This document shows positions 4 to 60,311 of a stretch of DNA of 64,000 bases, one piece after another. Each line of letters starts with the position of its first letter. Position 1 is the first letter of the stretch. This DNA comes from an uncultured Methanosarcinales archaeon (GTDB lineage Archaea > Nanobdellota > Nanobdellia > Woesearchaeales > DSVV01). A program made the translations under genes and the position numbers. The notes beneath the pieces were generated by a model that ran no database searches, was not told where the DNA came from, and saw only the letters and a program-made list of their open reading frames with translations. The DNA lies in assembly GCA_964556185.1 (NCBI GenBank), contig CAZKVI010000001.1, forward strand, positions 7,165-71,164, given 5' to 3'.

Positions 4-3000
4 ATGATGGAGAACAATGCACCAGAGATAACTTTTTCAGGTGGACATTCATTAGATCGATATATTAGTTTAGTTGAAAGTGGTGTTTTGGAATTTGGTG
101 AACATTATACTAGTGTAAGTATTAATGGTATGGATTATAGAATATATTTCTTACAAAGCCAAGGTTATGATAATCAGATGTATATATCAGGATTTAGAAT
201 TTTCTTAAATATGGGTGAGATTGATTCAAGTGATGGAGAATTCTTTGAAACTTTAACATCTGTTACAGATTCTTTGTATATCCAAGTAGAAGATAGAGAA
301 GGAACAAAGATTGAGCCAGTAGTACTTGAGGAAGAAAGTGAAGCAAGTATTACAGATGTTGATGAAGCAGCACCATTAAGTTTAGAAACTGGAGAAGTTT
401 CTGTTGAATTACCAGTACAAGGACTTGTTGGTGCAGAACAACTTGGACCATTAGAAGAACCTGTTTTTGTAGATTATAGAGAAGCTCAAGAAATGACAGA
501 TCAAGCAAGTACTAATTTATTCTTACAATCTTTACCTTTATTAGAAGATGCAGTTGCAAGAGGTGATGATAATACGATATTAACAATATTAGAATCATTA
601 GCAAATATTGCTCCTAAAGTTGATCCAACTTTAATAAGTATGACAATTCCTTATTTAGTTGATGCGTTGGGGGTTGTTGAGGATGAAGTGACATTAAATT
701 CTGTTGCTTCTCTTATAGCAAATGTTGCAGAATATTCAACTACTCCAGAACTTCTTGAAGATTTAATTGTTCCATTAGTAAATGCATATGGCCTGGTTCA
801 TGATGGTGATAAACCATCAATAACTATGGCTCTTGCAGCTGTTGTTGTAGCAGTTGATAATCTTCCTATTCCTGAATTAGTAATAATAGATATATTAATT
901 GCTGATCTAAAACAAAATGAAAATGCACTAGTTATTTCTGCTCTTGGTAAAATTGGTGAATCAGCAATTGAACCATTAATTGAAGCTTTAAAAGAGACAA
1001 ATGGTGGCACATTTGCTCAAGATTTAGGTGAGATAGCAAAAACTACAAATTCAGAATTAATTCAACAATTGGTTGATTCATTAATTACTGATTTGAAAGA
1101 GACTAGTGATTATAATGAAGCAAAAAAACTTATTTCTATTCTTGGTAAAATAGCTGGACCAGCAATTGAACCAATGATCTCTTTATTAGGGCAAATGCCA
1201 GATGAGGTTTTAGAAGTTAAGCTTGCTCAAACTATTGGTAGGATTGGTGAACCAGCAATCGAACCTTTGCTTGCTGCATTAGGTGAAACAAATGATATTG
1301 ATGTAATCTCTGGAATTGGTTCTGCTTTAAGTAAAATAACTGGAACACTAATGGATGTAGAATTATTAGAACCAATGATTGAACCCTTGGCTACTGCTCT
1401 AGTAAAGGCAAATGAACAAAACAACGATGATGCTAGATATTCTATTGTTTCAACTTTAAATAAAATAGCAAAACAAGTCAATCCAGAATTATTAAGGCCA
1501 GCACTTGAACCAGTAGCAGATCTTTTGGAAACTTCAGGAGTAAAAGATGTTCGTCTGATGGCCATCGTATTCTTGAGAGAAGTAGCAGAACCAGCAATTC
1601 CTACTTTATATTCTAGATTAAAACAAGCAAGGGCTTCAGGAAATCTCGAATTACAAGAAAATATTATACTTTCTTTTACAGGTATGGAAGATTTTTCTTT
1701 AGTAGAATTAACTGACTTAATTAAAGCAGATAATGAACAAACCAAACAAGTTCTAGAACAACTTGAATCACAAGGTTATGAATTTAGACTTCAAGATTAT
1801 GGGATATTAACTTCTTATCCAGAAGTTTTATTAGGAATTCCTTTGGAAAGAGATGAGTTAATTGCTGCAATTAGAGAAATGATGCCAGCTGAGCATATAG
1901 AAAAAACAGTTCAACCTGGTTACGAATCACAGAATTTTGATGATTATGTTGGTGAAGGCTCTGTTAATCAATTAAGTATAGTAAGTTTAGCAAAACTATA
2001 TTTAATGTTAAATACACTAAGCAATCCATCATTTGTTGATCGAGTTGGTTTATTGATTATACAGGATTTCTTAAATACAGATACAGAAACAGGTGGAGTA
2101 GTTAGATTAGTTGATGGTTCTGTTGCTTTGGTTAATTTTGAGCCAAGTAAAAGGGGAAATTATAAGGTGTTTGCTTCTCCTACTGAAGTTAAAGTTTTAT
2201 CTTTTTATGAAGTAGGGGATTATCATCTACATGCTGGTACTGGAACAACCAAAGGTAATGCAGATCTTGCGGGACCAAGTGGATTTTTACATGGTTCAGA
2301 AGGTGATTTAGTAGTGGCTCATTTAGCTAAAAGAGATGGTGTTGTTATAACTCATTTAGGGGGAGAGCATGGAAGAAATTCATATAATGTTGTGTTTTAT
2401 ACTCCAACTGGTCAAGTTGTCGATCTTGGTGTTTATAGATGGAATGAAGAAAGTGTTCCTTGGTTGACTGCAGAGGAAGAAGTAGAAGTTAAAGCAGGTA
2501 TGGAAGAAAGAAGACAATTAGCAACACAAGTAGTACAGGCTGCATTGGGGGCCAGAGTTCAAGCAATGCAAGCTGCAGAGACTGATGTTGAAACTAATTT
2601 AGGAGAATTCTTAGAAGCTAATGGATTAGAAGATACTTGCAGTGATTGTATTTTATTAATTGGTCAAGTTAGACAATTAATTAAAGATGGTAAATTAGAT
2701 GAAGCAAGAGCTTTAATTGATAGAGAAATCAATGCACTTGTTCAAGGAGCTGGAAGTAGTTTTGTTGATATTGCTAATGCAGATTATGCAAGAGCAATTA
2801 CTGAATTAAATGGATTAATTTATCTAGTAGAAAGAGATGCATCTGCATCAATTGATTTATTGAGTAGTATTGGTCAACTAACTTATCAAATTGAATTAGT
2901 TCAAGCTAAACAAGAAAGATTGGCTGCTATTGAAGATGGTGATCTTATTGAACCTTGGGATTTTGTTGATGAAGTTTACGAAGATTCAGTAAGTAATTAT

Positions 3001-6000
3001 ATGGTTGAATTACAAGATTATTATATGTCTAAAGTTATGGTTGCTTTGGAAGGAATTATTCCTGCTGAATTTATTGAAATATCATTATCACATGGATTAA
3101 AACCACAAGATATAATTAGGTTCTTTTTAGATGATTATGTAACAGATGATAATTTAGATCAAATTTCTGTATTAGGGAATGCTTTAGAAGAATATGCAAT
3201 TGCTGCAGAAACAAATCCAGATTTATCAATGACTGCAGAAGAAGCAAGGGCATTAAAAGATTTTGTTTTAGCAGCTACATCCTTTTTTATTGAAGGAACA
3301 GTTAAAATAGGAGAAGATGAAACAGTTGTAGAAGGGCAACAACTATCTTTCTTGTCACGTTATGGACGAGCAGTTGCATCAGTTGCAGCAGGTGTATTAA
3401 CACTAGCAATTGCGAAACCTGTGTTTGCAGCGACTACAATTATTGCTAGTGGGACAGTCATGCCTGCACTTGGTATTGCAGGAGGAGCAATAGCTGCAAT
3501 TATTGGCGGTTATTTTGCATATACAAAAGTAATTAAGCCTTGGTGGTTGAGAAGGAACATAGATAGTCAACTAGAGGTGCTTGCGACTTCAGATGATCAA
3601 AATGAAATAGATACAGCAGTTCAAAACTTGGTAATAATAGGAGAGCCAGCAATAGAACCATTAATGACTTACATGGAAAAGTCATTTTTTAGGGATAAGA
3701 TATTTGCACAAGCTATTGTTGAAGTTTCTAATAATGTGGGGCCAGAAGTGATGGAAACTTTTATACCTCGTTTGATTGAAGATTCTCTTAAAATCTCTCC
3801 TGATGCAAGCTTTGAAATAGGTGAAGTCTTTTCTAAAATAGGAGAGCCAGCAATACAACTCTTGGTTGAGACATTAGAATCTGCAACACAAAGAAAAGAT
3901 TATTCTGCAAAAGAAAGAATAGTGAATACATTCTCTCAAATTGCTAAAACAAATGATCCGGCACTTTTATGGCCAGCAATAAAACCATTAATTGATTCTA
4001 TGCAGGCAGAACCATTCCTTCAAAATACTGGTACAAGAAATCTTCTTACAACTATTGGTGCACCTACCATGCCTTATTTAGTGGAAGCTTTAAGTTATAC
4101 AGAAGGAGATGTAAAAAAATATGTTATTATGACTATTAAATCTATTGCTGAAAAAGAAGATGTAACAGGAGAGGAATTAGAACAAGCAATTTTACCATTA
4201 GCTGAATCTTTTTCTACAGAAGATACTTGGACTACAGTTGAAGTTGAGTTAGGGCTAGAAATTAGTAAAGCACTTACAGAAATTGCTAAAAAGTCTGACA
4301 GCGAATTATTCTTGTATACAATTGCACCTTTGAGTAATGCTTTGCGAATAGGAGATTCTTTTTCAAAAGTAGAAGCAGCTCGTGCAGTTGCAGAGATTGC
4401 TAAAAAAGAAAATATTGATGGAAATTCATTAATGCCTACAGTTTATTCTTTGATGGATTCATTTGGTGGACTTAGAAAACATGAAGATAAGATTGTTGTA
4501 GCAGCAGCTATTGCAGAAGTTGCTAAAAAAGTAGATGGTGAATTATTTGTAGAAACAGTAGATTCGTTGGTTTACATGCTTGCAATAGATTTAAGAGTAC
4601 AGAATGATGAAAGAGAAATCATAAGCGATGCTCTTGCAGCAATAGGGGTGCCTGCAATTATACCTTTACTAAACTCATTGGGAGATAAAGAAGCACGTAG
4701 CACAGAAATCACTAACACAATTGCTAAGATGGGGGATTCTGCGATTCAACCAATAGTTGATTCATTGCCAGAGTTGAAATATGAACAATCAGTCTCTCGT
4801 GCTGCAGATATTCTTGCAGAATTTGGAGAAAAAGCGATTCCAGGTTTAGTTGAAGTATTACAAAAAGCAGAAGGACTTCAAATAAATAACATCCTTTGGT
4901 CTATTACTAAAATTGCTGGCAAAGAGGATGTTAGTAGAAGGGCATTAGAGCCACTAATACAACCACTAATAGATTTATTAATGGGTTCTTTTACTCCGGC
5001 ATTAGTTCATTCTACTTTTGGAGATATTGGACCATCAACAGTCCAACCTTTATTTGAAGCATTACAAGCAACAGAGGACCATGAAACAAAGCGCAAGATT
5101 CTTTTTTCTCTTTCATACGCTATTAAAAATGTAGATCCAGAGATTGCAGAGCCATTAATACAGCCAATGTTTGAAATTATGATGGAAGGCATCACAGGGG
5201 AAGGAGTTTCTAAGATTTCATCTGATGCAATGGAGGTCTTAATCAATATGGGAAAAACATCTGTTCCATTCTTATTACAAGAACTTGAAAAAACAAAACC
5301 TTGGTCAGAATTAGTAGAAGGCAGCAAAGAATGGATGGTCAAAAAGCAGATATCTGGTGCATTAATAAAGATAGCTCAAGAGATTATGGAATCTGACTTA
5401 GAATTTGTTATGGGAAGTATAATGGATATGTATGTTGAGCTTGCATTCGAAGTTGGTATGATTGCTGATGCATCAATCCAGTCAGAGATTATTAGAAGTG
5501 CCTCTAGTTTTATTTACATATTAAATAAGAATAATGCTTTGACAAGGATGGATCAAGATTACTTAAAACAAAAGATTATTGTTCCTTTTATTTCATTATT
5601 AAAAGAACAAGATACATTTATTGATCATGATGCATCATTTGTTTTGAAAATGCTTGGTTTACCAGCACTAGAAACCATACTTACTGATAAAGATATTAGT
5701 TTGGATGATAAAAAGAAAGCATTTAATTTGTTGAAAGATACTTTGCCTGCAGCAGATCAATTCTTTTATGAATTAATCTTTGAATTGGAATCAGAAGATC
5801 AAATAGGAATAGCTAGGAGAATTTATACAAAAGGCATAATGCCTACAAACTATCTTGTAGATAATTATGAAGAAGGTATTGAAGATGAATGGGAAGCAAC
5901 TTTAACTTCAATACAAACAAGAGAGACATCAATGGATTATGATAATCCATTACATGTTGCATTAATGTATACAGACTTTAGAGGAAAAATAGATTGTTGT

Positions 6001-9000
6001 TTCTCAAGACCAAGTAAGTATAATTATGAAACTTATCAAAGTATTATGCAAGACTTAGATGCTGATGCTGTACCAAGTTTATCAGGAGATCAAGAAGCAG
6101 AGTTAGTCTATGCTGGTTATGAAGCATATAGGGTTCATCAATATTTAGTAGAATTAAATGAAATGGCAAAACAAATGGGTAGGAAATTATTGGTTGTTCC
6201 AAATTATAGTTATGGAAGATTTATAATAGAACCTATTCAAAAAGATTTAGAACGTTTAGATAATATAATTATCCAACCAGCAAGAATTGGTTCAACAGAA
6301 GCACACTCAAATGATTATTTATTACATGCATCTAATACAAATAGGTTATTTGATGAAAATACAGAAAGAATGATTTTAGAAGAGCAACCTATTATTGTAA
6401 TGGTTGATGGAAGTAATAGTTATACTAGGGGAAGAGATGCTCGTTATCCAGATGCACAAAAAGGCTTTACTAATTGGGGTATTGTATTAAATGATGTTCT
6501 TGGTGTAGAACAAGGCGAAATGCAGAGGACAGATGATCATATAACTGGTTTAAGAGAAACATCAGCTTATGCAACATTAAGAACAAGAATGGAAGGTTAT
6601 GGTATTTCTGTAGAAGGTGCAGAACAATACAATGTGCATTATTGGAATCCAGCAGGAACTTCATTAGCTTTAACAAAAGGTAAGCATGCAACAAGAGTAG
6701 TGGAAACAAAAGTTCCTGTAACACAATCTTCTGAAATTGATGGTCCAGCAGTTGTAATAATTAATTCAGTGTTTAATGATGGTTATGATGATGTTAGTCT
6801 TCCTGCTGATGTAAAAGCAAAAGGAAATAACAAACAACATGAATCTGCTTATTATGATGATACACATCATATTCAAGATATATTATTCAAGAAAGGAAGC
6901 CATGGTATAGAAATACAAGATGAAATTTATGAAGCTATTAGGGACGAATTTACAGATTTTAAACATCAGAATTCTCCATTATATGTTGCAATAGAAGAAA
7001 CAGGAATCTTAACACATAAGCAAGCAACAGAAATGAGATTGCATAGATTACAACATTATTCTGTAGAGAGAGCTACAAGTAAATTATTAGGCAAGCTTTC
7101 AAGACGAGAAATTACTTTAAGTGCTGGTCAAATTGCAGATCTTATTGCAATAATACAAACTCAACAAATTTATGCAGATAGAGAAGTCAGTTCTTCAGAG
7201 GTTGCAAGAGATATTGCTGAGGAAGAAGTAAGAGAAGCAGCAGAGACTTATTTAAGAGATCCTGTTGTAATTGAATATGGAACTTCATGTAGAAGTGCTT
7301 GTGTAATTGGTGCAGAACTTGATGAAAGGGTTATAGGTGTTGAAGAAGGAAGACATGAAGATCTTGGTCCAGTTGTTGCATCAGATGGATATGGGTTATC
7401 AGTTGCTGCAGAGATTATTGATAACTTAGATGATCCTGCAAATGATGGTAATGAACAAGCATTAGTAGATTATGCATTTAGATTATTGGATCAGGTTGAT
7501 GGAGAAGCTCAAGAGGAAGCATTTGCAAGAGCTCAATTCTTGCAAGAAATAAAAGAATTAGAAGCAGAAGTTGCAGAAGAATCAGAAACATATGAAGATA
7601 CTGTTAGTAGTGATATGGTTGACTTACAAGAGTTCCATATATCTAAAGTTATGGTTGCATTGGAAGAGATTATTCCTGTTGAGGTTATTGATGAATTCTT
7701 TTCTCTTGATGTTTCTTTACAAGAGATATTTGATTATTATTTGAGTGCTTATGTGACAGAAGATAATCTTGATCAACTTATAGAATTAGAAGAATTAGAG
7801 TTTATTGGTAGATTGCGTGAAGCAATACTTGTTGATGATCTTGAACTGAGACTCGAGGATTCAACAGAAGTAAATATAATTGGTGCTGAACAAGAAATTT
7901 CAGAACTTGAAAGAACACTTGAGAGAGAGTTTTTTAGTTTTGATGGAATATCAGCAGAATTAGCAAGTAGAATTGTAGCTGTTGATCCTGAATTAACTCC
8001 ACGTGTAATAAGTGGAGAATACACTGATGTAGTTGAAGTAATTGATTCTAGTGTAAGACATACAATAAATGTTGATATAAGGGCAAGAGATAGAATACCT
8101 TTGTTTGTTATTGATAGATTAAGAGCAGGTAGGTCAATTAGTTTACATCAAGGAACTAGTGCAGAATCTATTGTACAATTAAGAAAAGAAGGATTTACAC
8201 AGTTTAACTCATTATCTCAATGGAGACCTAAGTTATGGGTAGCAACAAATGAAGACGGCGCTCTTACTTATTTCTTTGCAGATATTTATAGTGAAAGTAG
8301 ACTTAATGATGTCCAAGCATTGTTAAAACTTTTAGATGTTCCTTCGTCTAATGTTGATACATATGATTATGGACATGAGTATGTTGGAGAAATACGCGAA
8401 GCACTTGAAGGTATTCCTGATGAAAATAAACCAGATGTATTAATTATGGGAGATCAAACAGCTTTTATGCAAGGATATCTTAGAGATGGTTATATTGCAA
8501 GTACACTTGCAACTAATTTACAAGAATTGGTTCAAAGTCAATTAGCAGAAGGAAAACCAATTGTTGAAGCATTACAATCTTATTTTTCTGTAGAAGGTGA
8601 ATGGTTCGATAATTATTATAATGAAATTGTGTCAACTAATTCAATGAGAAATGTGTTAAGGGAACATTTTGTAGAAGTAGGAAGAGCACGTGAGTTAGGA
8701 AGTGTAATGGCGCAGATAAAAGAAAGAGGTTTTATTGATAGTGATTTCTTAGATGAACTTGATGTTCCAAGAGAAGCACAGGCAGAAATATTAAATGCTG
8801 AATATTATATTTCAAAAGATGGGTTTTATGAATCACAAATTCAGTCCTTAGTTAATGATTTGATTGATTTATTTGTTAGTAATCCAAATTATGATGCTTT
8901 ATTGGGTAGTAATCCAAAGGACTTGCTTAGGGATCGGGCTTTGGCAGCAGAATTTACAAAAGCATATGAAGAAGTAGTTAAAGTCTTGGATAAACATAAT

Positions 9001-9828
9001 CTGTTTCGTAGATTTAATACACTTCAAATGCCACAAACTTTTCTTGAAAAATATGAAACTCCTTTTATAGTTATGTATGGGTTTAAAATATTGACTTCAT
9101 CTGGAGAAGTTAAAAACATAATATTAACCCCTAATCCTTATGGGGATCTTGGAGGAGATGTAGTTGATGCAGCCTTGCAGTATAGTGAAGACCATGATTT
9201 AGAGGAAATATTGTTTATTGGTACAGGAGGAGCAATAGCATCCGAAGGTCTTGAAGTACATGATATATATTTTCCTGAATCTGTTGATGTGGAAATTGGC
9301 TACTTGAAAGTTCCAAATGCAATGGCGACAAGATATAAAAGAGGAGAATTACAAACAAAATATTCAGAAGTACATTTTACAAGACACGCTTCTATAGATA
9401 CTGTATTGGAAGAGACTTATCCATTTGTAGAAGCTTTACAAGAAGATGGAATAGAAACACTTGATGTTGAAATAAATACTATTGTTGCTAGTTATAGGCT
9501 TTATTTGGGTTTTGTTTCTCATGAGTTATCCAAATTTTTAACAGAACATCAATCTAAAGCAATAGATAATCATTTACAAAATGGAGAAAGTATTGATAGG
9601 ACTTTTTTAGAAGAACTTGGTATTTCTGAAAGAGAAGTACAAGATAGAGTTCTTTCTATTACGGATAAAGTTCCTAATTTGAGTATTGTTCAACATGTTT
9701 CTGATTTACCATTAGTTCCTGGTTTGACATTAGATGAATTAGGGTTTGGAACATCTCTTGGATTACAGAGAGATAAATATTCTAATTTAATACTTGAACA
9801 TCTTGATGTAGTAGCAGTTGAACCATAA
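4..9828 (+). CDS. Giant (3274 aa) HEAT/PBS-lyase-like repeat protein with a central transmembrane hairpin. It may be 5'-partial at the window edge. A possible C-terminal nucleoside-phosphorylase-like domain is noted.
   Basis: Single uninterrupted ORF. Many GEPAIEPL(I/L)EAL-type HEAT repeats occur in two blocks (about aa 190-620 and 1190-1740). Two hydrophobic helices lie around aa 1120-1185. An internal duplicated ~60-aa module (MVELQDYYMSKVMVALEGIIP / MVDLQEFHISKVMVALEEIIP) is present. The C-terminal ~250 aa contains FIGTGGA and a DVEINT motif reminiscent of the PNP/MTAN fold. Confidence 0.7.
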   Translation: MMENNAPEITFSGGHSLDRYISLVESGVLEFGEHYTSVSINGMDYRIYFLQSQGYDNQMYISGFRIFLNMGEIDSSDGEFFETLTSVTDSLYIQVEDREGTKIEPVVLEEESEASITDVDEAAPLSLETGEVSVELPVQGLVGAEQLGPLEEPVFVDYREAQEMTDQASTNLFLQSLPLLEDAVARGDDNTILTILESLANIAPKVDPTLISMTIPYLVDALGVVEDEVTLNSVASLIANVAEYSTTPELLEDLIVPLVNAYGLVHDGDKPSITMALAAVVVAVDNLPIPELVIIDILIADLKQNENALVISALGKIGESAIEPLIEALKETNGGTFAQDLGEIAKTTNSELIQQLVDSLITDLKETSDYNEAKKLISILGKIAGPAIEPMISLLGQMPDEVLEVKLAQTIGRIGEPAIEPLLAALGETNDIDVISGIGSALSKITGTLMDVELLEPMIEPLATALVKANEQNNDDARYSIVSTLNKIAKQVNPELLRPALEPVADLLETSGVKDVRLMAIVFLREVAEPAIPTLYSRLKQARASGNLELQENIILSFTGMEDFSLVELTDLIKADNEQTKQVLEQLESQGYEFRLQDYGILTSYPEVLLGIPLERDELIAAIREMMPAEHIEKTVQPGYESQNFDDYVGEGSVNQLSIVSLAKLYLMLNTLSNPSFVDRVGLLIIQDFLNTDTETGGVVRLVDGSVALVNFEPSKRGNYKVFASPTEVKVLSFYEVGDYHLHAGTGTTKGNADLAGPSGFLHGSEGDLVVAHLAKRDGVVITHLGGEHGRNSYNVVFYTPTGQVVDLGVYRWNEESVPWLTAEEEVEVKAGMEERRQLATQVVQAALGARVQAMQAAETDVETNLGEFLEANGLEDTCSDCILLIGQVRQLIKDGKLDEARALIDREINALVQGAGSSFVDIANADYARAITELNGLIYLVERDASASIDLLSSIGQLTYQIELVQAKQERLAAIEDGDLIEPWDFVDEVYEDSVSNYMVELQDYYMSKVMVALEGIIPAEFIEISLSHGLKPQDIIRFFLDDYVTDDNLDQISVLGNALEEYAIAAETNPDLSMTAEEARALKDFVLAATSFFIEGTVKIGEDETVVEGQQLSFLSRYGRAVASVAAGVLTLAIAKPVFAATTIIASGTVMPALGIAGGAIAAIIGGYFAYTKVIKPWWLRRNIDSQLEVLATSDDQNEIDTAVQNLVIIGEPAIEPLMTYMEKSFFRDKIFAQAIVEVSNNVGPEVMETFIPRLIEDSLKISPDASFEIGEVFSKIGEPAIQLLVETLESATQRKDYSAKERIVNTFSQIAKTNDPALLWPAIKPLIDSMQAEPFLQNTGTRNLLTTIGAPTMPYLVEALSYTEGDVKKYVIMTIKSIAEKEDVTGEELEQAILPLAESFSTEDTWTTVEVELGLEISKALTEIAKKSDSELFLYTIAPLSNALRIGDSFSKVEAARAVAEIAKKENIDGNSLMPTVYSLMDSFGGLRKHEDKIVVAAAIAEVAKKVDGELFVETVDSLVYMLAIDLRVQNDEREIISDALAAIGVPAIIPLLNSLGDKEARSTEITNTIAKMGDSAIQPIVDSLPELKYEQSVSRAADILAEFGEKAIPGLVEVLQKAEGLQINNILWSITKIAGKEDVSRRALEPLIQPLIDLLMGSFTPALVHSTFGDIGPSTVQPLFEALQATEDHETKRKILFSLSYAIKNVDPEIAEPLIQPMFEIMMEGITGEGVSKISSDAMEVLINMGKTSVPFLLQELEKTKPWSELVEGSKEWMVKKQISGALIKIAQEIMESDLEFVMGSIMDMYVELAFEVGMIADASIQSEIIRSASSFIYILNKNNALTRMDQDYLKQKIIVPFISLLKEQDTFIDHDASFVLKMLGLPALETILTDKDISLDDKKKAFNLLKDTLPAADQFFYELIFELESEDQIGIARRIYTKGIMPTNYLVDNYEEGIEDEWEATLTSIQTRETSMDYDNPLHVALMYTDFRGKIDCCFSRPSKYNYETYQSIMQDLDADAVPSLSGDQEAELVYAGYEAYRVHQYLVELNEMAKQMGRKLLVVPNYSYGRFIIEPIQKDLERLDNIIIQPARIGSTEAHSNDYLLHASNTNRLFDENTERMILEEQPIIVMVDGSNSYTRGRDARYPDAQKGFTNWGIVLNDVLGVEQGEMQRTDDHITGLRETSAYATLRTRMEGYGISVEGAEQYNVHYWNPAGTSLALTKGKHATRVVETKVPVTQSSEIDGPAVVIINSVFNDGYDDVSLPADVKAKGNNKQHESAYYDDTHHIQDILFKKGSHGIEIQDEIYEAIRDEFTDFKHQNSPLYVAIEETGILTHKQATEMRLHRLQHYSVERATSKLLGKLSRREITLSAGQIADLIAIIQTQQIYADREVSSSEVARDIAEEEVREAAETYLRDPVVIEYGTSCRSACVIGAELDERVIGVEEGRHEDLGPVVASDGYGLSVAAEIIDNLDDPANDGNEQALVDYAFRLLDQVDGEAQEEAFARAQFLQEIKELEAEVAEESETYEDTVSSDMVDLQEFHISKVMVALEEIIPVEVIDEFFSLDVSLQEIFDYYLSAYVTEDNLDQLIELEELEFIGRLREAILVDDLELRLEDSTEVNIIGAEQEISELERTLEREFFSFDGISAELASRIVAVDPELTPRVISGEYTDVVEVIDSSVRHTINVDIRARDRIPLFVIDRLRAGRSISLHQGTSAESIVQLRKEGFTQFNSLSQWRPKLWVATNEDGALTYFFADIYSESRLNDVQALLKLLDVPSSNVDTYDYGHEYVGEIREALEGIPDENKPDVLIMGDQTAFMQGYLRDGYIASTLATNLQELVQSQLAEGKPIVEALQSYFSVEGEWFDNYYNEIVSTNSMRNVLREHFVEVGRARELGSVMAQIKERGFIDSDFLDELDVPREAQAEILNAEYYISKDGFYESQIQSLVNDLIDLFVSNPNYDALLGSNPKDLLRDRALAAEFTKAYEEVVKVLDKHNLFRRFNTLQMPQTFLEKYETPFIVMYGFKILTSSGEVKNIILTPNPYGDLGGDVVDAALQYSEDHDLEEILFIGTGGAIASEGLEVHDIYFPESVDVEIGYLKVPNAMATRYKRGELQTKYSEVHFTRHASIDTVLEETYPFVEALQEDGIETLDVEINTIVASYRLYLGFVSHELSKFLTEHQSKAIDNHLQNGESIDRTFLEELGISEREVQDRVLSITDKVPNLSIVQHVSDLPLVPGLTLDELGFGTSLGLQRDKYSNLILEHLDVVAVEP

Positions 9829-12736: not shown

Positions 12737-12904
12737 GAATTGATAATATTGCCAAGCGTAGTCCAAGACTTATCTTAGAATTGAACGATCCTAGGTAAAC
12801 TTATAGAACTTTGTATTGACACGGAGCGCAATATTATCGCTTGTTTGTGCACGTACAACTTATTCTTTCTTTTTACTGTGCCCGTAAGAGTATACACACA
12901 AACC

Positions 12905-12977
12905 ACAGAAGTCTGCGATACAGAAGCTAAAGCTTCTTAGTTTCTTGCAGAAACCTTCTTGGTTTCCTAACGGAAAC
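12905..12977 (+). repeat. Cluster of three short tetraloop hairpins. It shares the motifs acagaagtct and tttcctaacggaaa with the copy at 31819..31856. It is either a terminator-like element after 12167..12736 or a leader of trpS.
   Basis: agaagc-taaa-gcttct (12922-12937), tttct-tgc-agaaa (12941-12953), gtttcc-taac-ggaaac (12962-12977). A 10-mer and a 14-mer are identical to the second locus. Confidence 0.5.
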
Positions 12978-13007
12978 TTTATTAATACATATATTAGATC
13001 ATATACT

Positions 13008-14132
13008 ATGGCATATACTGTAACACCTTGGAAAGTTCAAGGAGATGTAGATTATAATAAAGTAATCAAAGACTTTGGAGTTCAAGCTATTGATGATAAA
13101 CTAGCAAAAAGAATAAAGAAACACACTGGAGAACTTCATCATTTGCTTAGAAGAAATATATTCTTTGCTCATAGGGATTTAAAATTTATTCTAGATGAAT
13201 ATGAAAAAGGAAATAAATTCTTTTTATACACAGGAAGAGCTCCATCTGGAAATACACATATGGGCCATTTAGTGCCTTGGATGTTTACAAAATGGTTGCA
13301 AGATAAATTTGATGTAGAATTATGGTTTCAGTTTCCAGATGAAGAGAAGTTTTTGTTTAATGAAAAATTAACTTTAGAAGATACTGAAAAATATACAACA
13401 GAAAACATGTTAGATGTTATTGCTTTGGGTTTTAATCCAAAGAAAACACATTTTATTGTTGATACAAAGCATGCAAACTTAATGTATAAAGAAGCTTTGA
13501 AAGTTGCAAAGAAAATAACTTTCTCGACTGCAAAATCAGCATTCGGTTTTTCAAATGATCAAAACATTGGTTCAATATTTTACACAGCAATGCAAGCAGT
13601 GCCTGCATTTTTACCTTCTGTTATTAAGAAGAAAAATATTCCTTGTTTAATTCCACATGCTATTGATCAAGATCCGCATTTTAGAGTTTCTCGTGATGTT
13701 ATTCCAAAACTTGGTCATTATAAACCTGCTTCAATACAATGTAGATTTTTACCAGGATTAGGTGGGATGCATGGGGATGGAAAAATGTCTTCTTCATCTG
13801 GCGATAATGCAACAATATTTACAACAGATGATGAAAAAACAGTTAAGAAAAAAATAAATAAGTATGCTTTTTCAGGTGGCCAAGTAACTGTTGAAGAACA
13901 TAGAAAAAAAGGTGGAAACCCAGATGTTGATGTAAGTTTTCAATGGTTGCAATTCTTTGAAGAAGATGATAAGAAGTTGAAGAAATATTATGATGATTAT
14001 AAATCTGGGAAGCTATTGACTGGCGAATTAAAGGCAATATTGATTGATAAATTGAATAAATTCTTAGTAAAACATCAAAAAGCCAGAGAAAAGGCTAGAA
14101 GTAAACTAGATCAGTATATCTACAAGGTTTAA
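13008..14132 (+). CDS. trpS: Tryptophanyl-tRNA synthetase, archaeal/eukaryotic type.
   Basis: YTGRAPSGNTHMGHLVPWMFTKWLQD is the class I HIGH region, highly similar to eukaryotic/archaeal TrpRS GRGPSS-LHLGHL. KMSSSSG is the KMSKS motif. The start is placed at the in-frame ATG 13008 after the hairpin cluster; the ORF-track start 12945 would include the hairpin. Confidence 0.75.
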   Translation: MAYTVTPWKVQGDVDYNKVIKDFGVQAIDDKLAKRIKKHTGELHHLLRRNIFFAHRDLKFILDEYEKGNKFFLYTGRAPSGNTHMGHLVPWMFTKWLQDKFDVELWFQFPDEEKFLFNEKLTLEDTEKYTTENMLDVIALGFNPKKTHFIVDTKHANLMYKEALKVAKKITFSTAKSAFGFSNDQNIGSIFYTAMQAVPAFLPSVIKKKNIPCLIPHAIDQDPHFRVSRDVIPKLGHYKPASIQCRFLPGLGGMHGDGKMSSSSGDNATIFTTDDEKTVKKKINKYAFSGGQVTVEEHRKKGGNPDVDVSFQWLQFFEEDDKKLKKYYDDYKSGKLLTGELKAILIDKLNKFLVKHQKAREKARSKLDQYIYKV

Positions 14133-16069: not shown

Positions 16070-16744
16070 ATGACAAAATTGTATGTTAAAGCTAGACCTT
16101 ATGATTATCAATTTGAACTAGATAAAACAGCGTTAATATTAGTTGATTTTCAAAGAGATTTTTTGTATTCTGGAGGATTTGGTGAAAGTCTCGGCAATGA
16201 TGTTTCGCTTCTCCAAAGAGCAGTTGAACCAACAAAAAGAGTATTAAAAGCAAGTAGGGATTATGGTTTGCAAATTTTTCATGTGAGGGAGGGCCATAAA
16301 CCAGATTTAAGTGATTGTCCAATCTCAAAAAGAACGCGAGGAAATTTTGAAAAGAGAATTGGTGATGTTGGTCAGATGGGAAGAATTCTTGTTAGAGGAG
16401 AGTATGGGCATGGGATAATTGATGAGTTGGCTCCAATAGACGGAGAAATGATTATTGATAAGCCAGGAAAATCTGCTTTTTATAAAACTAATCTGGCTGA
16501 AGAATTAGATCAAAGAGGAATTAGATATTTAATATTCACAGGCGTTACAACAGAAGTCTGTACATTAACAACAGTTGCTCAAGCAAATGATCATGGGTAT
16601 GAAGTACTTACTTTAGAAGACTGTGTAGGTTCTTACAAACCAGATTTACATGAATCAGCATTAAAGATGATTACATCTCAAGATGGAATCTTTGGGTGGG
16701 TAACTGAATCTAGGTATTTTTTGGATGTTGTTCAGGGATCGTAG
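16070..16744 (+). CDS. Isochorismatase-family cysteine hydrolase (nicotinamidase or N-carbamoylsarcosine amidase-like).
   Basis: LILVDFQRDF and FTGVTTEVCTLTTVAQANDHGYEV motifs, which are the catalytic Asp/Lys/Cys pattern of isochorismatase-like hydrolases. Confidence 0.7.
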   Translation: MTKLYVKARPYDYQFELDKTALILVDFQRDFLYSGGFGESLGNDVSLLQRAVEPTKRVLKASRDYGLQIFHVREGHKPDLSDCPISKRTRGNFEKRIGDVGQMGRILVRGEYGHGIIDELAPIDGEMIIDKPGKSAFYKTNLAEELDQRGIRYLIFTGVTTEVCTLTTVAQANDHGYEVLTLEDCVGSYKPDLHESALKMITSQDGIFGWVTESRYFLDVVQGS

Positions 16745-30580: not shown

Positions 30581-30623
30581 TATGTACTGAAAGCAATTAA
30601 TAAATTAATTGCTTTAGTACATA
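30581..30623. promoter_or_regulatory. 43-bp near-perfect palindrome between the antiporter and response-regulator genes. It could be a rho-independent-like hairpin or a dimeric operator.
   Basis: tatgtactgaaagcaattaat-aa-attaattgctttagtacata has 18/17-nt arms with one indel. A second hairpin, aaagca-ttttc-tgcttt, follows. Confidence 0.55.
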
Positions 30624-31370: not shown

Positions 31371-31793
31371 ATGAGAAAGATAATAGTAACATTATTGGTG
31401 ATTGCTTTGATGCTCACTATAGCAGGATGTGGTAAGGATGCAGAACCTGCACCAGTACCAGCACCAGCACCAGTAGTTGAGCCAGAACCAGTAGTAGAAC
31501 CAGAACCAGAACCTGAATTAGTTCCAATTGAAGTTGATGAAGAAGCAAAAACAACAGAAATTAAAGAAGAACTTTATGAAGAAGGTTCATGTGTTGATAC
31601 AGATGGTGGTGAAAACTACGCTGTAGCAGGAGAAGTCTGGGACACTGATGGTGGTCATGACGACGATACATGTAGTAGAAGTAAAGTTTACGAAAATAGA
31701 CTTTATGAAATGATTTGTGGCGAAGACGGCACAAAAGAAAGAATCACATACGAATGTCCAAATGGATGTGTCGATGGTGCATGTGTTGAATAA
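31371..31793 (+). CDS. Cysteine-rich secreted lipoprotein.
   Basis: Signal peptide plus lipobox LTIAGC, a Pro/Ala/Val/Glu-rich linker, and a C-terminal domain with 6 Cys. Confidence 0.55.
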   Translation: MRKIIVTLLVIALMLTIAGCGKDAEPAPVPAPAPVVEPEPVVEPEPEPELVPIEVDEEAKTTEIKEELYEEGSCVDTDGGENYAVAGEVWDTDGGHDDDTCSRSKVYENRLYEMICGEDGTKERITYECPNGCVDGACVE

Positions 31794-31818
31794 AAAGGTT
31801 AATTCCTTTTTTTCTTTT

Positions 31819-31856
31819 ACAGAAGTCTAACGACTTCTTACTTTCCTAACGGAAAG
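31819..31856 (+). terminator. Two tetraloop hairpins followed by an oligo-T tract. This is a terminator-like element and the second copy of the 12905..12977 motif.
   Basis: agaagtc-taac-gacttct (31821-31838) and ctttcc-taac-ggaaag (31841-31856), then tttctttttttattttt. Confidence 0.5.
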
Positions 31857-31929
31857 TTTCTTTTTTTATTTTTAAATATTAAATAGTTTTAAATATAATT
31901 AAAACAATACTTAATATTGGGTGTGATTA

Positions 31930-56378: not shown

Positions 56379-57299
56379 ATGTCAGATGAAAACAATGAAC
56401 AAGAAAAGGTCAATGAACCTGAACAAGAATCAACAGAAGTTTCCGAAGGAAACGAAGAAGTCGAAAAGACTTCTGAAGTAGTTGTTGAAGAGAAAGTAGA
56501 AGAACCAACAAAAGAAGAAGCAACAGAAGAAGTGAAAGCTCCAGCAGAAGAGAAGAAAGAAGAAGCAGTTGAAGAAGAAACAGAAAACAAAGAAGAAGAA
56601 CCAGCTGTTGACGAAGTCAACAAAGAAGCGCCAGCTTCTGTTGAAGAACCTCAAGAAGCTCCTGAGGTTGTCGACGAAACAGAGAAAGAATTCCTTGCTT
56701 CTGTAAAAGAAGATGTAGAAGAAGCAAAGAAAGAAAAAGAAGAAAAGAAAGCTGAAGAAGAGAAAGAAAAAGCTGAAGCTGAAGAAGCATCTGATAAAGA
56801 AGAAGATGAACACTCAATCTCTACAAAAATATTTGCATTAAGAACAACTGCAAATAGAGAAGATCAAGTTATGGATTTCTTAGGAAGTAATATTACAAAG
56901 AAAAAACTTGCAGTTTATTCTATCATAAGACCTCATGGAATGAGGGGTTACATTTTTATGGAAGCAGACAAAAGGATTGAAGCAGAACAAGCTGCATTTA
57001 ATGTTCCTTATGCTAGAGGAGTTTTAGCAAATGAAATTCAATACAAAGAAATTGAACATATGTTAGAACAAGTCAAAAAAGATGTCAATATTCAAAAGAA
57101 TGACATTGTTGAACTTATTTCAGGTCCTTTCAAAAGAGAAAAAGCAAAAGTTAGTAGAATTGATAAAACCAAGGAAGAAGTTGTTGTTGAATTACTTGAA
57201 GCAGCAGTACCAATTCCAATTACTGTTAGATTAGATGCAGTAAAGGTTATTAGAAGAGATACTGAAGAATCTGAAGAAGGCGAAGAACAAGAAGAGTGA
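56379..57299 (+). CDS. spt5: Transcription elongation factor Spt5 (NusG) with a ~140-aa Glu/Lys-rich N-terminal extension.
   Basis: NGN domain (ISTKIFALRTTANREDQVMDFL...GYIFMEAD) and KOW (GPFKREKAKVSRIDKTKEEVVVELL). Confidence 0.75.
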   Translation: MSDENNEQEKVNEPEQESTEVSEGNEEVEKTSEVVVEEKVEEPTKEEATEEVKAPAEEKKEEAVEEETENKEEEPAVDEVNKEAPASVEEPQEAPEVVDETEKEFLASVKEDVEEAKKEKEEKKAEEEKEKAEAEEASDKEEDEHSISTKIFALRTTANREDQVMDFLGSNITKKKLAVYSIIRPHGMRGYIFMEADKRIEAEQAAFNVPYARGVLANEIQYKEIEHMLEQVKKDVNIQKNDIVELISGPFKREKAKVSRIDKTKEEVVVELLEAAVPIPITVRLDAVKVIRRDTEESEEGEEQEE

Positions 57300-57413
57300 G
57301 CTCTTCTATTTTATTTTCTTTATTTTTTCATTTATTCTATATATTTAATTATTAATCATATATGTCATATCGAAGAATATTTATATTAAAACTTCTAGAT
57401 TATTGTAAAAGAG

Positions 57414-58256: not shown

Positions 58257-59534
58257 GTGATTTATATGGTTTCTAATTTAAAATTAAAAAAATCTGATTG
58301 GCAAAAGATTATTTTAGGAATTAGAAAAAAGTTAAATTTGAGTCAAACTAAATTAGCACGAAAGCTTTGTCTAAGTAGACAAACTATTAGCAGATTTGAA
58401 TCTAAACAAAGAATTCCAAATCATAGTTATCAAAAAAAGATCTTGGATCTTATTAGTAATGAAGATTTAGATATTTGTGAGTTAATAAATGAAGGTACAA
58501 AGTATTCCAAAGAGTACATTAAAAGACAGAAAAACGAGAAACTAGATCTAAAAAGATCAGTTGAATTAGCAGAATTAATAGGAATTATTCTTGGTGATGG
58601 TGAAATAATAAGGGATGGTACAATGAGAATCTCTTTTGATCCTAAAAAAGATAAAAATTTCCTTAATAGAAGAGTTATTTTTCTTATAAAACAATTATTA
58701 AACAAGAAAATTACTTATGAAAGCAATAAAAGAATTGCTTTTGGAAATATTGCTTTTGTAAGGTATTTAGAACAAGATTGTGGTTTAAAACCAGGAAGTA
58801 AGTTTGAAAATAATTCACAAATACCTAAGTGGTGTTTTGAAAAACAAGAGTATATTTCAGCTGTTTTAAGAGGATTATTTGATACTGATGGTTATTTTGG
58901 GTATTATGATTTCACTACAGAAATAATGTATGGAAGATTTTCAGATAAATGTACTAATTTAGTTCAAGATATAATAAAAAGCCTTAAGATACTGGGGTTG
59001 AATTCCAGTGTAAAACATACTAAAGATGGAAGATTTAAAATCAGAATATGTAAAAGAACAGATGTTTTGACTTTTTTTGAGAAAATTGGAACCTCAAATA
59101 TAAAACACATTGTTCGGTTCTTATTATGGAGATTTAATAGGTATGAAGCCAAGATTGAATTAGAAGGATTAGCAAACTTAATATTGAAAACAAGGTCCCT
59201 TTACCCAAATATAGAAGCTATACAACTGCCTTTCTTCTGGAATTTGGATAATATATGCTTCAAATCTTATGTACTAGAAGATTTGAATGAAATAGAAGGA
59301 GCACAAATTAAAAATATTTATAAATGGGACATAGTTTCTCGAGACTTAATTAAATATATGGGTAACAATAAGTTAGCAAATATATTTAATATAAATAACA
59401 GAAGTGTTAGAAAATGGCGTGAAGGGAGAAGAATTCCTTCTGACATAAATGCTTCGAAATTGATCAAATTATTAAAAGAGCATAATTTGACTCCAAGTGA
59501 TTATATAATGAAAAATGGCAAAGGAAACAATTGA
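58257..59534 (+). CDS. LAGLIDADG homing-endonuclease-like protein flanked by N- and C-terminal HTH domains.
   Basis: Two LAGLIDADG motifs ~97 aa apart (LIGIILGDGEI and LRGLFDTDGYF). N-terminal XRE-type HTH (LNLSQTKLARKLCLSRQTISRFE) and a C-terminal HTH-like segment (NRSVRKWREGRRIPS). Confidence 0.7.
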   Translation: MIYMVSNLKLKKSDWQKIILGIRKKLNLSQTKLARKLCLSRQTISRFESKQRIPNHSYQKKILDLISNEDLDICELINEGTKYSKEYIKRQKNEKLDLKRSVELAELIGIILGDGEIIRDGTMRISFDPKKDKNFLNRRVIFLIKQLLNKKITYESNKRIAFGNIAFVRYLEQDCGLKPGSKFENNSQIPKWCFEKQEYISAVLRGLFDTDGYFGYYDFTTEIMYGRFSDKCTNLVQDIIKSLKILGLNSSVKHTKDGRFKIRICKRTDVLTFFEKIGTSNIKHIVRFLLWRFNRYEAKIELEGLANLILKTRSLYPNIEAIQLPFFWNLDNICFKSYVLEDLNEIEGAQIKNIYKWDIVSRDLIKYMGNNKLANIFNINNRSVRKWREGRRIPSDINASKLIKLLKEHNLTPSDYIMKNGKGNN

Positions 59535-60311
59535 TGCTCTTATTGAAGGAGGCAAAGCAACTGCAGCTCCGCCCCTTGGGCCAGCATTTTAGGTCTCAAA
59601 ACCTATGCTAGAGGACCTGTAGGGGTTAACATCGGCGAAGTTGTAGCTGAAATCAATAAGAGAACTGCTGATTTTAAAGGTATGAAAGTACCTGTTAAGG
59701 TTATAGTAGATACAGATACAAAACAGTTTGAAATTGAAGTAGGTACTCCACCAGCTGCTCAACTTATTAAAACAGAAGCTAAAATTCAAAAAGCAGCATC
59801 TAATCCATTAACAGACAAAGTAGCAGATCTAAAGATCGAGCAAATTATTAAAATATCTAAAATGAAGGAATCTTCTTTATTAGGAAAAGATAATTTCCAA
59901 AGAGTAAAAGAAATTTGTGGAACATGTCAAAGTATGGGTGTTATGGTTGAAGGTAAACCAGCAAATGAAACTATTGCAGACATTAACAAAGGTTCTTTTA
60001 AAGAAAAGATTGAGTCTGGTAAGACTGAATTAAGTGCAGATGAACTTAAAGAAATGGAAGAAGAAAAGAAGAGACTACAAGAAGAACTTGAAAAGAAACG
60101 AACAGAATTCGAAGCAACTGGTAAACAAATTATGAAAGAAATGGAAGGCAAAGAATCTAAAGCAATCAGAGCAAAGATGGTAGAAGAAGGTCTTCCACAA
60201 CAAATTGTTGATCAATTAATGCCAACTGAAAAAGAAGGCGAAGGCGCTGCAAAAGGTGGAGAAGCTAAAGAAGGCGCACCTGCTGAAGCTAATGGCGATA
60301 AGAAAGAATAA
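59515..60311 (+). CDS. rpl11: Ribosomal protein uL11 (L11), with its reading frame interrupted by a 23-nt element near 59589-59612. It carries a ~95-aa charged C-terminal extension.
   Basis: Frame 1 reads MAKETIDALIEGGKATAAPPLGPAF then TAG. Frame 0 continues (LGLKTYAR)GPVGVNIGEVVAEINKRTADFKGMKVPVKVIVDTDTKQFEIEVGTPPAAQLIK... Both halves match the L11 N-domain consensus (GGKATAGPPLGPALGPLGVNI...). The 5' end overlaps the LAGLIDADG ORF by 20 nt. Confidence 0.75.
59589..59611 (+). other. 23-nt frame-disrupting intervening element inside rpl11. Candidates are a BHB/BHL-type mini-intron, a translational bypass element or an indel artefact.
   Basis: Removing ttaggtctcaaaacctatgctag (or the 1-nt-shifted equivalent) restores PPLGPA(L/F)GPVGVNI. 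The UAG stop lies at the base of a potential hairpin (59590-59597 pairing with 59611-59619). Confidence 0.45.

Follow-up and report, generated by a model that had tools for sequence, protein, structure and literature searches.

Two intergenic loci in a 64,000-nt stretch of archaeal DNA, which was analyzed in its full length and is here called the window, carry the same short sequences in the form of adjacent hairpins, and this raises the question of what kind of element stands behind the likeness. The first-pass annotation had proposed either a small dispersed repeat or a binding site for a specific protein. The genes of the window, among them archaeal TrpRS, TrmB, Spt5, SecE, FtsZ, thermosome, class-I LysRS and diphthamide synthase, point by their sequences to a DPANN archaeon, and their closest named homologues belong to Woesearchaeota, Nanoarchaeia and Woesearchaeales MAGs. 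The window starts within a giant ORF, which comprises 5662 aa in contig L001 and has Fic, PHP and HEAT-like matches. The features relevant to the repeat are the following, where CM denotes the covariance model R1 described below.

12905–12919, plus strand: extra 5′ half-copy ACAGAAGTCTGCGAT, the 5′ arm of an AGAAGTC-type hairpin 1 with no adjacent partner arm
12920–12939, plus strand: hairpin 1 of locus 1, AC-AGAAGC-TAAA-GCTTCT-TA, stem 12922–12927 with 12932–12937
12940–12960, plus strand: tandem duplicate of "hairpin 2 + CTTCTT", namely GTTTCT-TGC-AGAAAC (hairpin 12940–12954) and then CTTCTT
12962–12977, plus strand: hairpin 2 of locus 1, GTTTCC-TAAC-GGAAAC, CM score 45 bits
31792–31818, plus strand: separate hairpin AAAAAGG-TTAATT-CCTTTTT with T-run, overlapping the stop codon of ORF 31371–31793
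31819–31857, plus strand: locus 2, canonical 39-nt copy, AC-AGAAGTC-TAAC-GACTTCT-T-ACTTTCC-TAAC-GGAAAGT, CM score 73 bits
31858–31875, plus strand: T-run following locus 2, TTCTTTTTTTATTTTT, with 9 T among its first 10 bases
56429–56480, minus strand: third copy, antisense within the Spt5 ORF 56379–57299, CM score 33.6 bits, E ~2e-7
57290–57330, plus strand: single hairpin AGAAGAG-TGAG-CTCTTCT with T-run, the Spt5 stop codon in its loop

The two stretches originally described as shared are present as exact matches, the 10-mer ACAGAAGTCT at 12905–12914 and 31819–31828 and the 14-mer TTTCCTAACGGAAA at 12963–12976 and 31842–31855; a third occurrence of the 10-mer at 16550, within a gene, is probably due to chance. 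The accompanying statement that such identity is not expected by chance does not hold for the 14-mer taken alone, as about 54 repeated exact 14-mers are expected in a 64-kb window of 32% GC according to Markov simulations, and the 14-mer pattern at 2 mismatches finds at least two matches in 19% of shuffles. Both loci read ACAGAAG...CTTCTTnnTTTCCTAACGGAAA, and the statement does hold for their common block CTTCTTnnTTTCCTAACGGAAA, which with 20 specified bases is longer than first noted and is not matched in any shuffle of the window, even at 3 mismatches. For this reason the match of the two loci is considered real. Both loci also fold more stably than shuffled sequences (z = -4.8 for locus 1 and z = -4.4 for locus 2), and of TAAC-loop hairpins with stems of 5 bp or more the window contains just three, all of them within these two loci.

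Locus 2 represents the simple form of the element. As RNA it reads AGAAGUC-UAAC-GACUUCU followed by ACUUUCC-UAAC-GGAAAGU, it is situated 25 nt past the stop codon of a gene for a small secreted protein, and the T-run sets in at the next base. The hairpin at 31792–31818, which with its own T-run precedes the element, is a resident terminator-like structure and not part of the repeat; sister strains without the hairpin pair still have it, though its stem sequence is changed.

Locus 1, in contrast, is neither a simple succession of two stem-loops nor directly downstream of a gene. It contains the extra 5′ half-copy as well as the tandem duplicate of hairpin 2, and it lies 168 nt past the upstream gene since about 170 nt of other DNA are inserted there. 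Comparison with the orthologous site of a sister strain (contig L019) shows that the half-copy is missing in the latter, that the tandem duplicate represents an insertion of about 22 nt (direct sequence comparison), and that hairpin 1 is identical (L019:508–527). In the MFE fold of locus 1 the half-copy pairs with 12949–12960, leading to a long composite hairpin. On the downstream side a TATA-like sequence, TTTATTAATA (12978–12987), directly abuts hairpin 2, and the locus ends 31 nt before the start codon of TrpRS (ATG at 13008). A T-box or other leader of TrpRS was considered and rejected: the organism is archaeal, and hairpin 2 is positioned upstream of the TATA-like box and hence outside the TrpRS transcript, which is probably leaderless.

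A second repeat, element X, measures about 100 nt (12740–12839) and directly precedes locus 1. Further copies form an adjacent inverted pair (L013:587–685 and 696–795) and a single unit (L014:5647–5746); none was found in the other contigs examined or in viral contigs. Element X has a terminal stem of 11–12 bp in which transitions between the copies are compensated on the other arm, 7 of its approximately 19 predicted pairs covary in only four sequences, and the blocks GCUCCGU, CCUAGGAUCG and ACUACGCUUGG are conserved. Folding supports both orientations equally. The sister strains lack element X at their orthologous sites, and it has no Rfam match. As a further structure of the window, a palindrome of 43 nt with perfect arms is present at 30581–30623.

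More copies of the hairpin pair were found by three routes. An exact-pattern scan of metagenome contigs with CTTCTNNNTTTCCTAACGGAAA, which finds only copies with the canonical hairpin 2 and is thus biased in its sample, picked up four contigs, all from the metagenome Ga0233437; on each of them a stop codon is followed directly by an entire two-hairpin unit, and the loop of hairpin 1 is different every time. On one of these contigs BLAST revealed a diverged copy, L012:1381–1418, whose hairpin 2 (CUUUAC-UGGC-GUAAAG) carries a compensated change. The covariance model R1, built from seven copies and run with filters off, gave ten matches of 33–75 bits, three in the window and seven on contigs of closely related strains, so that the outcome named beforehand as speaking against a repeat, a motif restricted to the two loci, was not observed. 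Nine of the ten copies are intergenic and one is intragenic. Besides the contigs from the metagenome scan, sister-strain contigs had been gathered via homologues of window proteins; counting sequence not chosen for the motif, that is three copies in the 64 kb of the window, none in a 5-kb extension of the same genome and three in about 38 kb of syntenic sister contigs, the density amounts to about one copy per 15–20 kb.

Outside this group of strains the searches gave no related copies. The exact-pattern scan across one genome per GTDB species yielded six bacterial matches, about the number expected by chance, in unrelated contexts and without hairpin 1. Two scans of IMG/VR viral contigs returned either nothing or only hairpin-1-like chance matches of 21 bits, and a viral origin is therefore not supported. 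No Rfam family matched at gathering level in the whole window, with nothing but noise at E<=10 for both loci and the L013 copy; together with the absence of any ARAGORN prediction in the window, this led to the rejection of a tRNA or another known RNA family.

The repeat unit measures about 39–45 nt and is composed of hairpin 1, a 2-nt spacer, which in locus 2 amounts to one or two unpaired bases, and hairpin 2, thus of two palindromes of 16–18 nt each, whose stems contain only 2–3 GC pairs among 6–7 bp. In hairpin 1 the base (AGAAG/CUUCU) does not vary, while the inner pairs and the loop do. Hairpin 2 usually corresponds to (A/G)(C/G)UUUCC-UAAC-GGAAAG(U), and sometimes to a compensated variant or to a different hairpin. 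Throughout the ten copies the foot of hairpin 1, ACAGAAG/CUUCUU, and the UUU/AAA of hairpin 2 are invariant.

The covariance analysis suggested at the outset bears out the pairing of both stems. In the ten-copy alignment (A9, fitted to model R1, its sequences being few and related) 99.3% of 137 pair cells hold standard pairs, a G-U pair occurs at only one position, and compensatory changes affect 5 of 14 pairs (11 cells). The covariation score was reached by none of 500 shuffles, controls with slid partners scored about 0, and an independent MAFFT alignment gave the same picture. Contig L012 carries hairpin 2 both as UUUCC/GGAAA and as UUUAC/GUAAA, each compensated, and at L055:7542–7568 hairpin 2 is swapped for an unrelated palindrome. 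Intrastrand pairing of both stems is under selection. As the stems are perfect palindromes, either strand, in the form of RNA or of single-stranded DNA, fits this observation.

The placement of the copies is rather uniform. Nine non-redundant intergenic loci were compared, namely locus 1 and locus 2 of the window as well as L019, L012a, L012b, L013 (the same site as L055:10895), L014, L017 and L055:7518. All nine are oriented in the same direction as the upstream ORF, and with the exception of locus 1 they start 3–42 nt past its stop codon. Five of them are followed by a T-run (8–9 T in 10 nt), and in the remaining four a TATA-like box of the following gene adjoins the element. Since L012a, L012b and L017 are part of one tandem or paralogous gene family that has promoter and 5′ UTR in common, and locus 1 and L019 are orthologs, the number of independent loci is about 5–6, which corresponds to p ~0.02–0.03 for the orientation. 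No common function links the flanking genes, which encode TrpRS, Spt5, small secreted proteins and large surface proteins. Judged from the flanking sequences, a reading as archaeal terminators would fit only the five intergenic copies with a T-run. A generic terminator of the organism was rejected as well, most of the 50 window genes having no comparable downstream hairpin and a terminator scan remaining at chance level.

The third copy of the window, which on the minus strand reads CAGAAGTC-TTTTC-GACTTCT-TC-GTTTCC-TTC-GGAAAC, is located in the low-complexity acidic N-terminal extension of Spt5, where the reading frame is kept (...STEVSEGNEEVEKTSEV...). An artefact of composition was dismissed, as the sequence-specific pattern did not occur in any of 20000 codon shuffles and any two adjacent perfect hairpins in this region arose in 6 of 20000. 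Between identical flanks, the Spt5 gene of the sister strain contains an unrelated segment of 56 nt in place of the element-bearing one of 44 nt, and the left junction of the copy lies within a pre-existing ACAGAAG. This copy alone has a CAGAAGT/ACTTCTG end pair, in part pre-existing gene sequence. Judging from its junctions, the Spt5 copy looks like a replacement via microhomology rather than a cut-and-paste insertion. Owing to its antisense orientation, it would not provide a sense-strand hairpin with U-tract in the Spt5 mRNA.

Comparison of orthologous sites between strains whose flanking proteins are 88–95% identical reveals turnover: four such sites hold the element in one strain, while in the sister it is missing or has been replaced or rebuilt. 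In L019 (TrpRS 93% identical) it is found in simple form 11 nt past the stop codon of the orthologous upstream gene, with hairpin 2 changed to GUUUGC-UAGC-GCAAAC, a compensated C-G to G-C change relative to locus 1, and the promoter region behind it differs from that of the window at 1 of 34 positions. Locus 1 with its compensatory stem changes is thus conserved in a relative, contrary to the second outcome that was to count against a repeat. The pair of locus 2 is missing in five sister contigs (L026–L030), where the orthologous protein is 95% identical and the first hairpin and T-run are kept, with unrelated AT-rich sequence in its place. Behind Spt5 the sister strain has a full pair (L013:511–552, L055:10895–10947) as well as two copies of another repeat, at a site where the window shows just the single hairpin AGAAGAG-UGAG-CUCUUCU and a T-run; the latter hairpin is possibly related to the repeat. 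In the sister strain an extra copy follows an extra 219-aa gene that the window lacks, and the N-terminal Spt5 copy is absent there. No copies were found in about 78 kb of more distant contigs (L020, L023–L025 and L031–L033), which encode either a TrpRS 80–82% identical or a more distant homologue; the more distant genome among them has a homologue of the locus 2 gene that is 53% identical. The loci accordingly belong to a multi-copy family that is confined to a narrow Woesearchaeales-like DPANN clade, and closely related strains differ by gain, loss, duplication and partial replacement of its copies. This supports the small dispersed repeat that had been proposed first.

In order to place this family among known elements, its properties were compared with those of described small repeats and terminators. 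The family resembles REP, BIME and REPIN elements, which are short (20–40 nt) imperfect palindromes in multiple copies, extragenic, typically located at gene 3′ ends or between operon genes, and species- or strain-specific; 9 of its 10 copies are intergenic. REP elements stabilize the upstream mRNA and sometimes terminate transcription. The present host is an archaeon, however, the two tandem hairpins differ from each other and keep one orientation instead of forming inverted doublets, a conserved GTAG-type 5′ tetranucleotide was not identified, and the copy number is low so far. REPIN-like inverted doublets were not found in a CM search of both strands, in which all copies were single units of one orientation, and neither a RAYT gene nor a Y1_Tnp domain is present in the window or in the sister contigs examined.

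The pneumococcal SPRITE is a dispersed intergenic repeat that resembles a hairpin-plus-U terminator and lies near other small repeats (PMC10969869), and the hairpin pair likewise clusters with element X in two loci. The context of SPRITE is that of a bacterial RNA polymerase, for which hairpin and U-tract are sufficient, whereas an archaeal requirement for the hairpin is not known (PMC8716108). A sense hairpin with U-tract, the layout of bacterial intrinsic terminators, is found in 5 of the 9 intergenic copies, the other four being devoid of a T-run; the stems are only moderately GC-rich, and for archaea this mechanism is not established (PMC8716108). Archaeal terminators that depend on aCPSF1/FttA share with these five the T-run just past the stop codon, but those known consist of the U-tract alone with no conserved upstream hairpin or sequence (PMC8716108).

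MITEs, among them the archaeal ones of Sulfolobus, Halobacterium and Haloquadratum, are non-coding, short, multi-copy, stably structured, preferentially intergenic or in 3′ UTRs, and polymorphic between strains (PMC10969869), traits shared by the family described here with its ten copies and four polymorphic sites. In this broad sense of a short non-coding dispersed repeat the initial "MITE-like" label was apt; its strict sense is not borne out, as terminal inverted repeats (TIRs) are missing, no clear target-site duplications were seen, no related autonomous IS was found in the window or the sister contigs, and the length is about 40 nt compared to the usual 50–500 nt. The ends, ACAGAAG... 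and ...GGAAAG(T), do not pair with each other, each arm pairing within its own hairpin. At locus 2, L012b and L014 T-rich sequence flanks the copy on either side, which makes short flanking repeats indistinguishable from composition, and filled versus empty sites indicate replacement and not clean insertion. Rickettsia palindromic elements (RPEs) resemble the Spt5 copy in being inserted in frame within a gene that stays intact (PMC10969869); they measure about 100–150 bp and are frequently intragenic, whereas here a single copy of ten lies within a gene, in an acidic extension of low complexity. As neither the TIRs and clear target-site duplications of MITEs nor the doublets of REPINs were found, the family is described as REP- or SPRITE-like in its presumed way of working and assigned to no named family. 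On the basis of this comparison, its behaviour appears closest to that of bacterial REP and SPRITE. A limited literature search found no description of such repeats for DPANN or Woesearchaeales.

The explanation that we favour, if by no wide measure of confidence, is that the loci are copies of a lineage-specific REP/SPRITE-like repeat which would act as a transcript 3′-end module and would have spread by copying at the DNA level. A role on the RNA level is suggested by the constant placement and orientation and by the U-tract that often follows. The repeat occupies the short gap that separates the stop codon of a gene from the promoter behind it and points in the direction of the upstream gene, whose transcript would then carry the hairpins and have its 3′ end protected by them, for example from 3′ exonucleases. 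Where a U-tract follows, the hairpins might in addition help to define termination and thereby insulate a promoter only tens of bases away. Spreading could have taken place by non-autonomous transposition or by insertion into AGAAG- and T-rich stretches through microhomology or template switching; no enzyme for it was identified in the sequence covered. According to Term-seq studies of archaea, termination proceeds via U-tracts and aCPSF1 and no hairpin is required (PMC8716108), which implies that the hairpins are not needed for termination per se. This dependence of known archaeal termination on U-tract and aCPSF1, along with the four copies without T-run, makes it less likely that the repeat is a terminator in the strict sense.

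The main rival is a selfish palindromic DNA element without host function, mobilized as a single-stranded DNA hairpin by a transposase acting in trans, in which case the bias in position and orientation would merely reflect where insertions are tolerated. We consider it rather unlikely, even though several observations would be in line with it: the presence/absence polymorphism at the four orthologous sites, the one in-frame insertion or replacement in a coding region, which recalls Rickettsia palindromic elements (PMC10969869), the narrow taxonomic range, and the partial and duplicated copies at locus 1. An invariant hairpin foot (ACAGAAG/CTTCTT) beneath a variable inner stem is also what a recognition site would look like. 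Contrary to such an element, the insertions are not clean and flanking sequence is replaced, TIRs and clear target-site duplications are missing, and the intergenic loci, nine out of nine, follow the orientation of the upstream gene. Furthermore, a transposase, RAYT or TnpA domain was found neither among the Pfam-scanned ORFs of the window nor in the precomputed Pfam annotation of some 150 kb of sister contigs, an absence that covers about 70 kb of this genome plus the sister contigs and thus a fraction of the genome.

A hairpin-dependent 3′-end signal in an archaeon, either a portable intrinsic terminator of bacterial style or a module on which a lineage-specific 3′-end factor docks, and copied between genes by template-switch or microhomology at AGAAG- or T-rich sequence without any transposase, is decidedly improbable in our view. 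If true, it would mean that DPANN archaea with their tiny intergenic spaces insulate neighbouring genes by a mobile terminator cassette.

The recognition site of a sequence-specific protein, be it an RNA-binding protein at 3′ UTRs or a DNA regulator upstream of the next TATA box, would define a regulon or a processing signal, and we hold it to be quite improbable. In its favour are the outer stem AGAAG/CTTCT and the TTT/AAA of hairpin 2, which do not vary in ten copies, the recurrent UAAC loop, and the four loci where hairpin 2 abuts a TATA-like box in the position of a BRE. Against these stand the two copies on L012 with different, compensated versions of hairpin 2 and the one copy with an unrelated hairpin 2. 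Such compensation indicates pairing of a nucleic acid and not the reading of half-sites by a dimer; the half-site conservation within one genome that a dimeric operator would show is lacking, TTTCC facing TTTAC on one and the same contig. In addition, the flanking genes have no function in common, and gain and loss between near-identical strains are unlike a conserved regulon. A site for a transcription factor on double-stranded DNA is consequently disfavoured, and a site for a protein binding RNA or single-stranded DNA may be considered. An origin recognition box, a TTCCAGTGGAAA-like dyad, was rejected in view of the different spacing, the single sites, the variation of hairpin 2 and the absence of Orc1/Cdc6 among the ORFs scanned, and so was a CRISPR repeat (GTTTC...GAAAC ends), the copies being isolated and not forming an array.

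A family of independent small non-coding RNA genes with their own transcription would account for a compact, stable and conserved structure with covariation and for the 3′ U-run in 5 copies, and nevertheless we regard it as very improbable, given that no promoter-like TATA precedes the copies, of which several start 3–13 nt past a stop codon, that about 40 nt is very short, that Rfam gave nothing beyond noise and that one copy resides inside a coding region. A chance likeness of two AT-rich terminator hairpins, for which the expected 54 or so repeated 14-mers and the 19% of shuffles with a two-mismatch pair of matches might be cited, is practically negligible in the face of the 20-base block that no shuffle produced and of eight more copies with the same architecture.

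Neither the hairpin pair nor element X showed a bulge-helix-bulge (BHB) motif when inspected. A candidate for such a motif is found elsewhere in the window, where the gene of ribosomal protein L11 is interrupted within its conserved PPLGPALGP motif by 23 nt (59589–59611). Three independent assemblies carry the very same insert, which the sister strain lacks, and removal of exactly these 23 nt restores an ORF of 254 aa. The MFE fold displays a canonical helix-bulge-helix-bulge-helix arrangement, with a 3-nt bulge UUU, a 4-bp helix AGCA/UGCU and a 3-nt bulge AGA. In archaeal BHB introns cleavage takes place between the second and third bulge residues (PMC2738675), and this rule applied to the L11 fold excises exactly the 23 nt. 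On the strength of the predicted fold, the insert is likely a 23-nt BHB intron. Directly upstream of L11 lies an ORF with HTH_3 and LAGLIDADG domains (58257–59534), which is absent from the sister strain. Splicing of mRNA by the archaeal tRNA endonuclease is accepted only for cbf5 and one Haloferax gene (PMC10485636). The predicted mini-intron may attract wider interest than the repeat.

Palindromic repeats at gene ends, such as REP, SPRITE and MITE-like elements, are well known in bacteria for their effects on mRNA stability, termination and genome plasticity, and very little is known of them in archaea. The family described here is a compact, structured example whose gain and loss can be traced between near-identical environmental strains, including the in-frame copy in Spt5. 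The element together with model R1 is usable as a strain marker of this lineage in metagenomes. If the hairpins do aid termination or 3′ protection, the family would bear on the question of hairpin-assisted termination in archaea, for which current data point to U-tracts and aCPSF1.

In the sister population, large genes of about 600 aa, which are tandem or paralogous, carry a common conserved promoter/5′-UTR block (caaatacCTCTAGAGAATAG...cGGAGGgatttattATG) in the following regions of two contigs:

L012:1420-1496, promoter/5′-UTR block of a ~600-aa gene
L012:3585-3680, promoter/5′-UTR block of a ~600-aa gene
L017:2950-3030, promoter/5′-UTR block of a ~600-aa gene

Besides this block the genes have the ~40-nt hairpin pair in common, which indicates that some copies of the repeat were propagated by gene-family duplication. 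The Spt5 gene of the window is closed by a single hairpin, AGAAGAG-TGAG-CTCTTCT (57290-57330), with the stop codon in its loop and a T-run next to it. Its foot, AGAAG/CTTCT, is that of hairpin 1 of the repeat, and the corresponding site of the sister strain harbors the full repeat.

The pattern used to search for the repeat also has chance matches in three bacterial contigs (Bacteroidia/Flavobacteriia):

L007:5991-6012, chance match
L010:1637-1658, chance match
L018:5712-5733, chance match

All three matches lie in one and the same conserved stretch of about 100 nt (…aacaacgtgtataaaaaattgctac…CTTCTGATTTTCCTAACGGAAAatcctcgcac…), which suggests a conserved non-coding element of those bacteria, unrelated to the repeat.

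Between the stop codon of the upstream gene and the hairpin pair at 12905-12977, a second dispersed element of about 100 nt is located, denoted element X, with these copies:

Window 12740-12839, element X
L013:587-685, element X
L013:696-795, element X
L014:5647-5746, element X

Copies beyond these four were not found in the window, the related-strain contigs and the viral contigs searched, nor is the element present at orthologous sites in the sister strains. The copies share the conserved blocks GCTCCGT, CCTAGGATCG and ACTACGCTTGG, and their terminal stem of 11-12 bp covaries by compensated transitions. Element X is without match to any Rfam family, and folding supports its two orientations equally. 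It may represent either a small RNA with a defined structure or a mobile element.

A near-perfect palindrome of 43 nt (window 30581-30623; core AAAGCAATTAA-TAAA-TTAATTGCTTT, arms of 11 bp) is placed in the 200-nt spacer that separates the genes for a Na+/H+ exchanger and a response regulator. The window start falls inside a giant ORF (4-9828, >3274 aa) extending upstream, which is called as 5662 aa in contig L001 with weak matches to Fic, PHP, metallophosphatase and HEAT-repeat domains.

The ribosomal protein L11 gene (59515-60311) is split by an insert of 23 nt, TTAGGTCTCAAAACCTATGCTAG, at 59589-59611, which falls within its conserved motif PPLGPALGP. Three independent assemblies (the window, L059 and L060) agree on this insert to the base, and it is missing from the sister-strain gene (L055:12013-12777). 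An ORF of 425 aa with HTH_3 and homing-endonuclease-like LAGLIDADG_3 domains (58257-59534) lies 55 nt upstream of the insert, its stop overlapping the L11 start; it occupies a 1.4-kb insertion separating L11 from a 245-aa gene, whereas in the sister strain just 24 nt lie between the two. Removal of precisely the inserted 23 nt from L11 recovers an ORF of 254 aa. The minimum free energy fold is a canonical bulge-helix-bulge, in which a helix of 4 bp (AGCA/UGCU) separates two bulges of 3 nt, UUU and AGA. Such motifs are cleaved between the second and third bulge residues (PMC2738675), and application of this rule to the L11 fold excises precisely the inserted 23 nt. The insert is a candidate for an intron that the tRNA endonuclease removes from a protein-coding mRNA in a DPANN archaeon.
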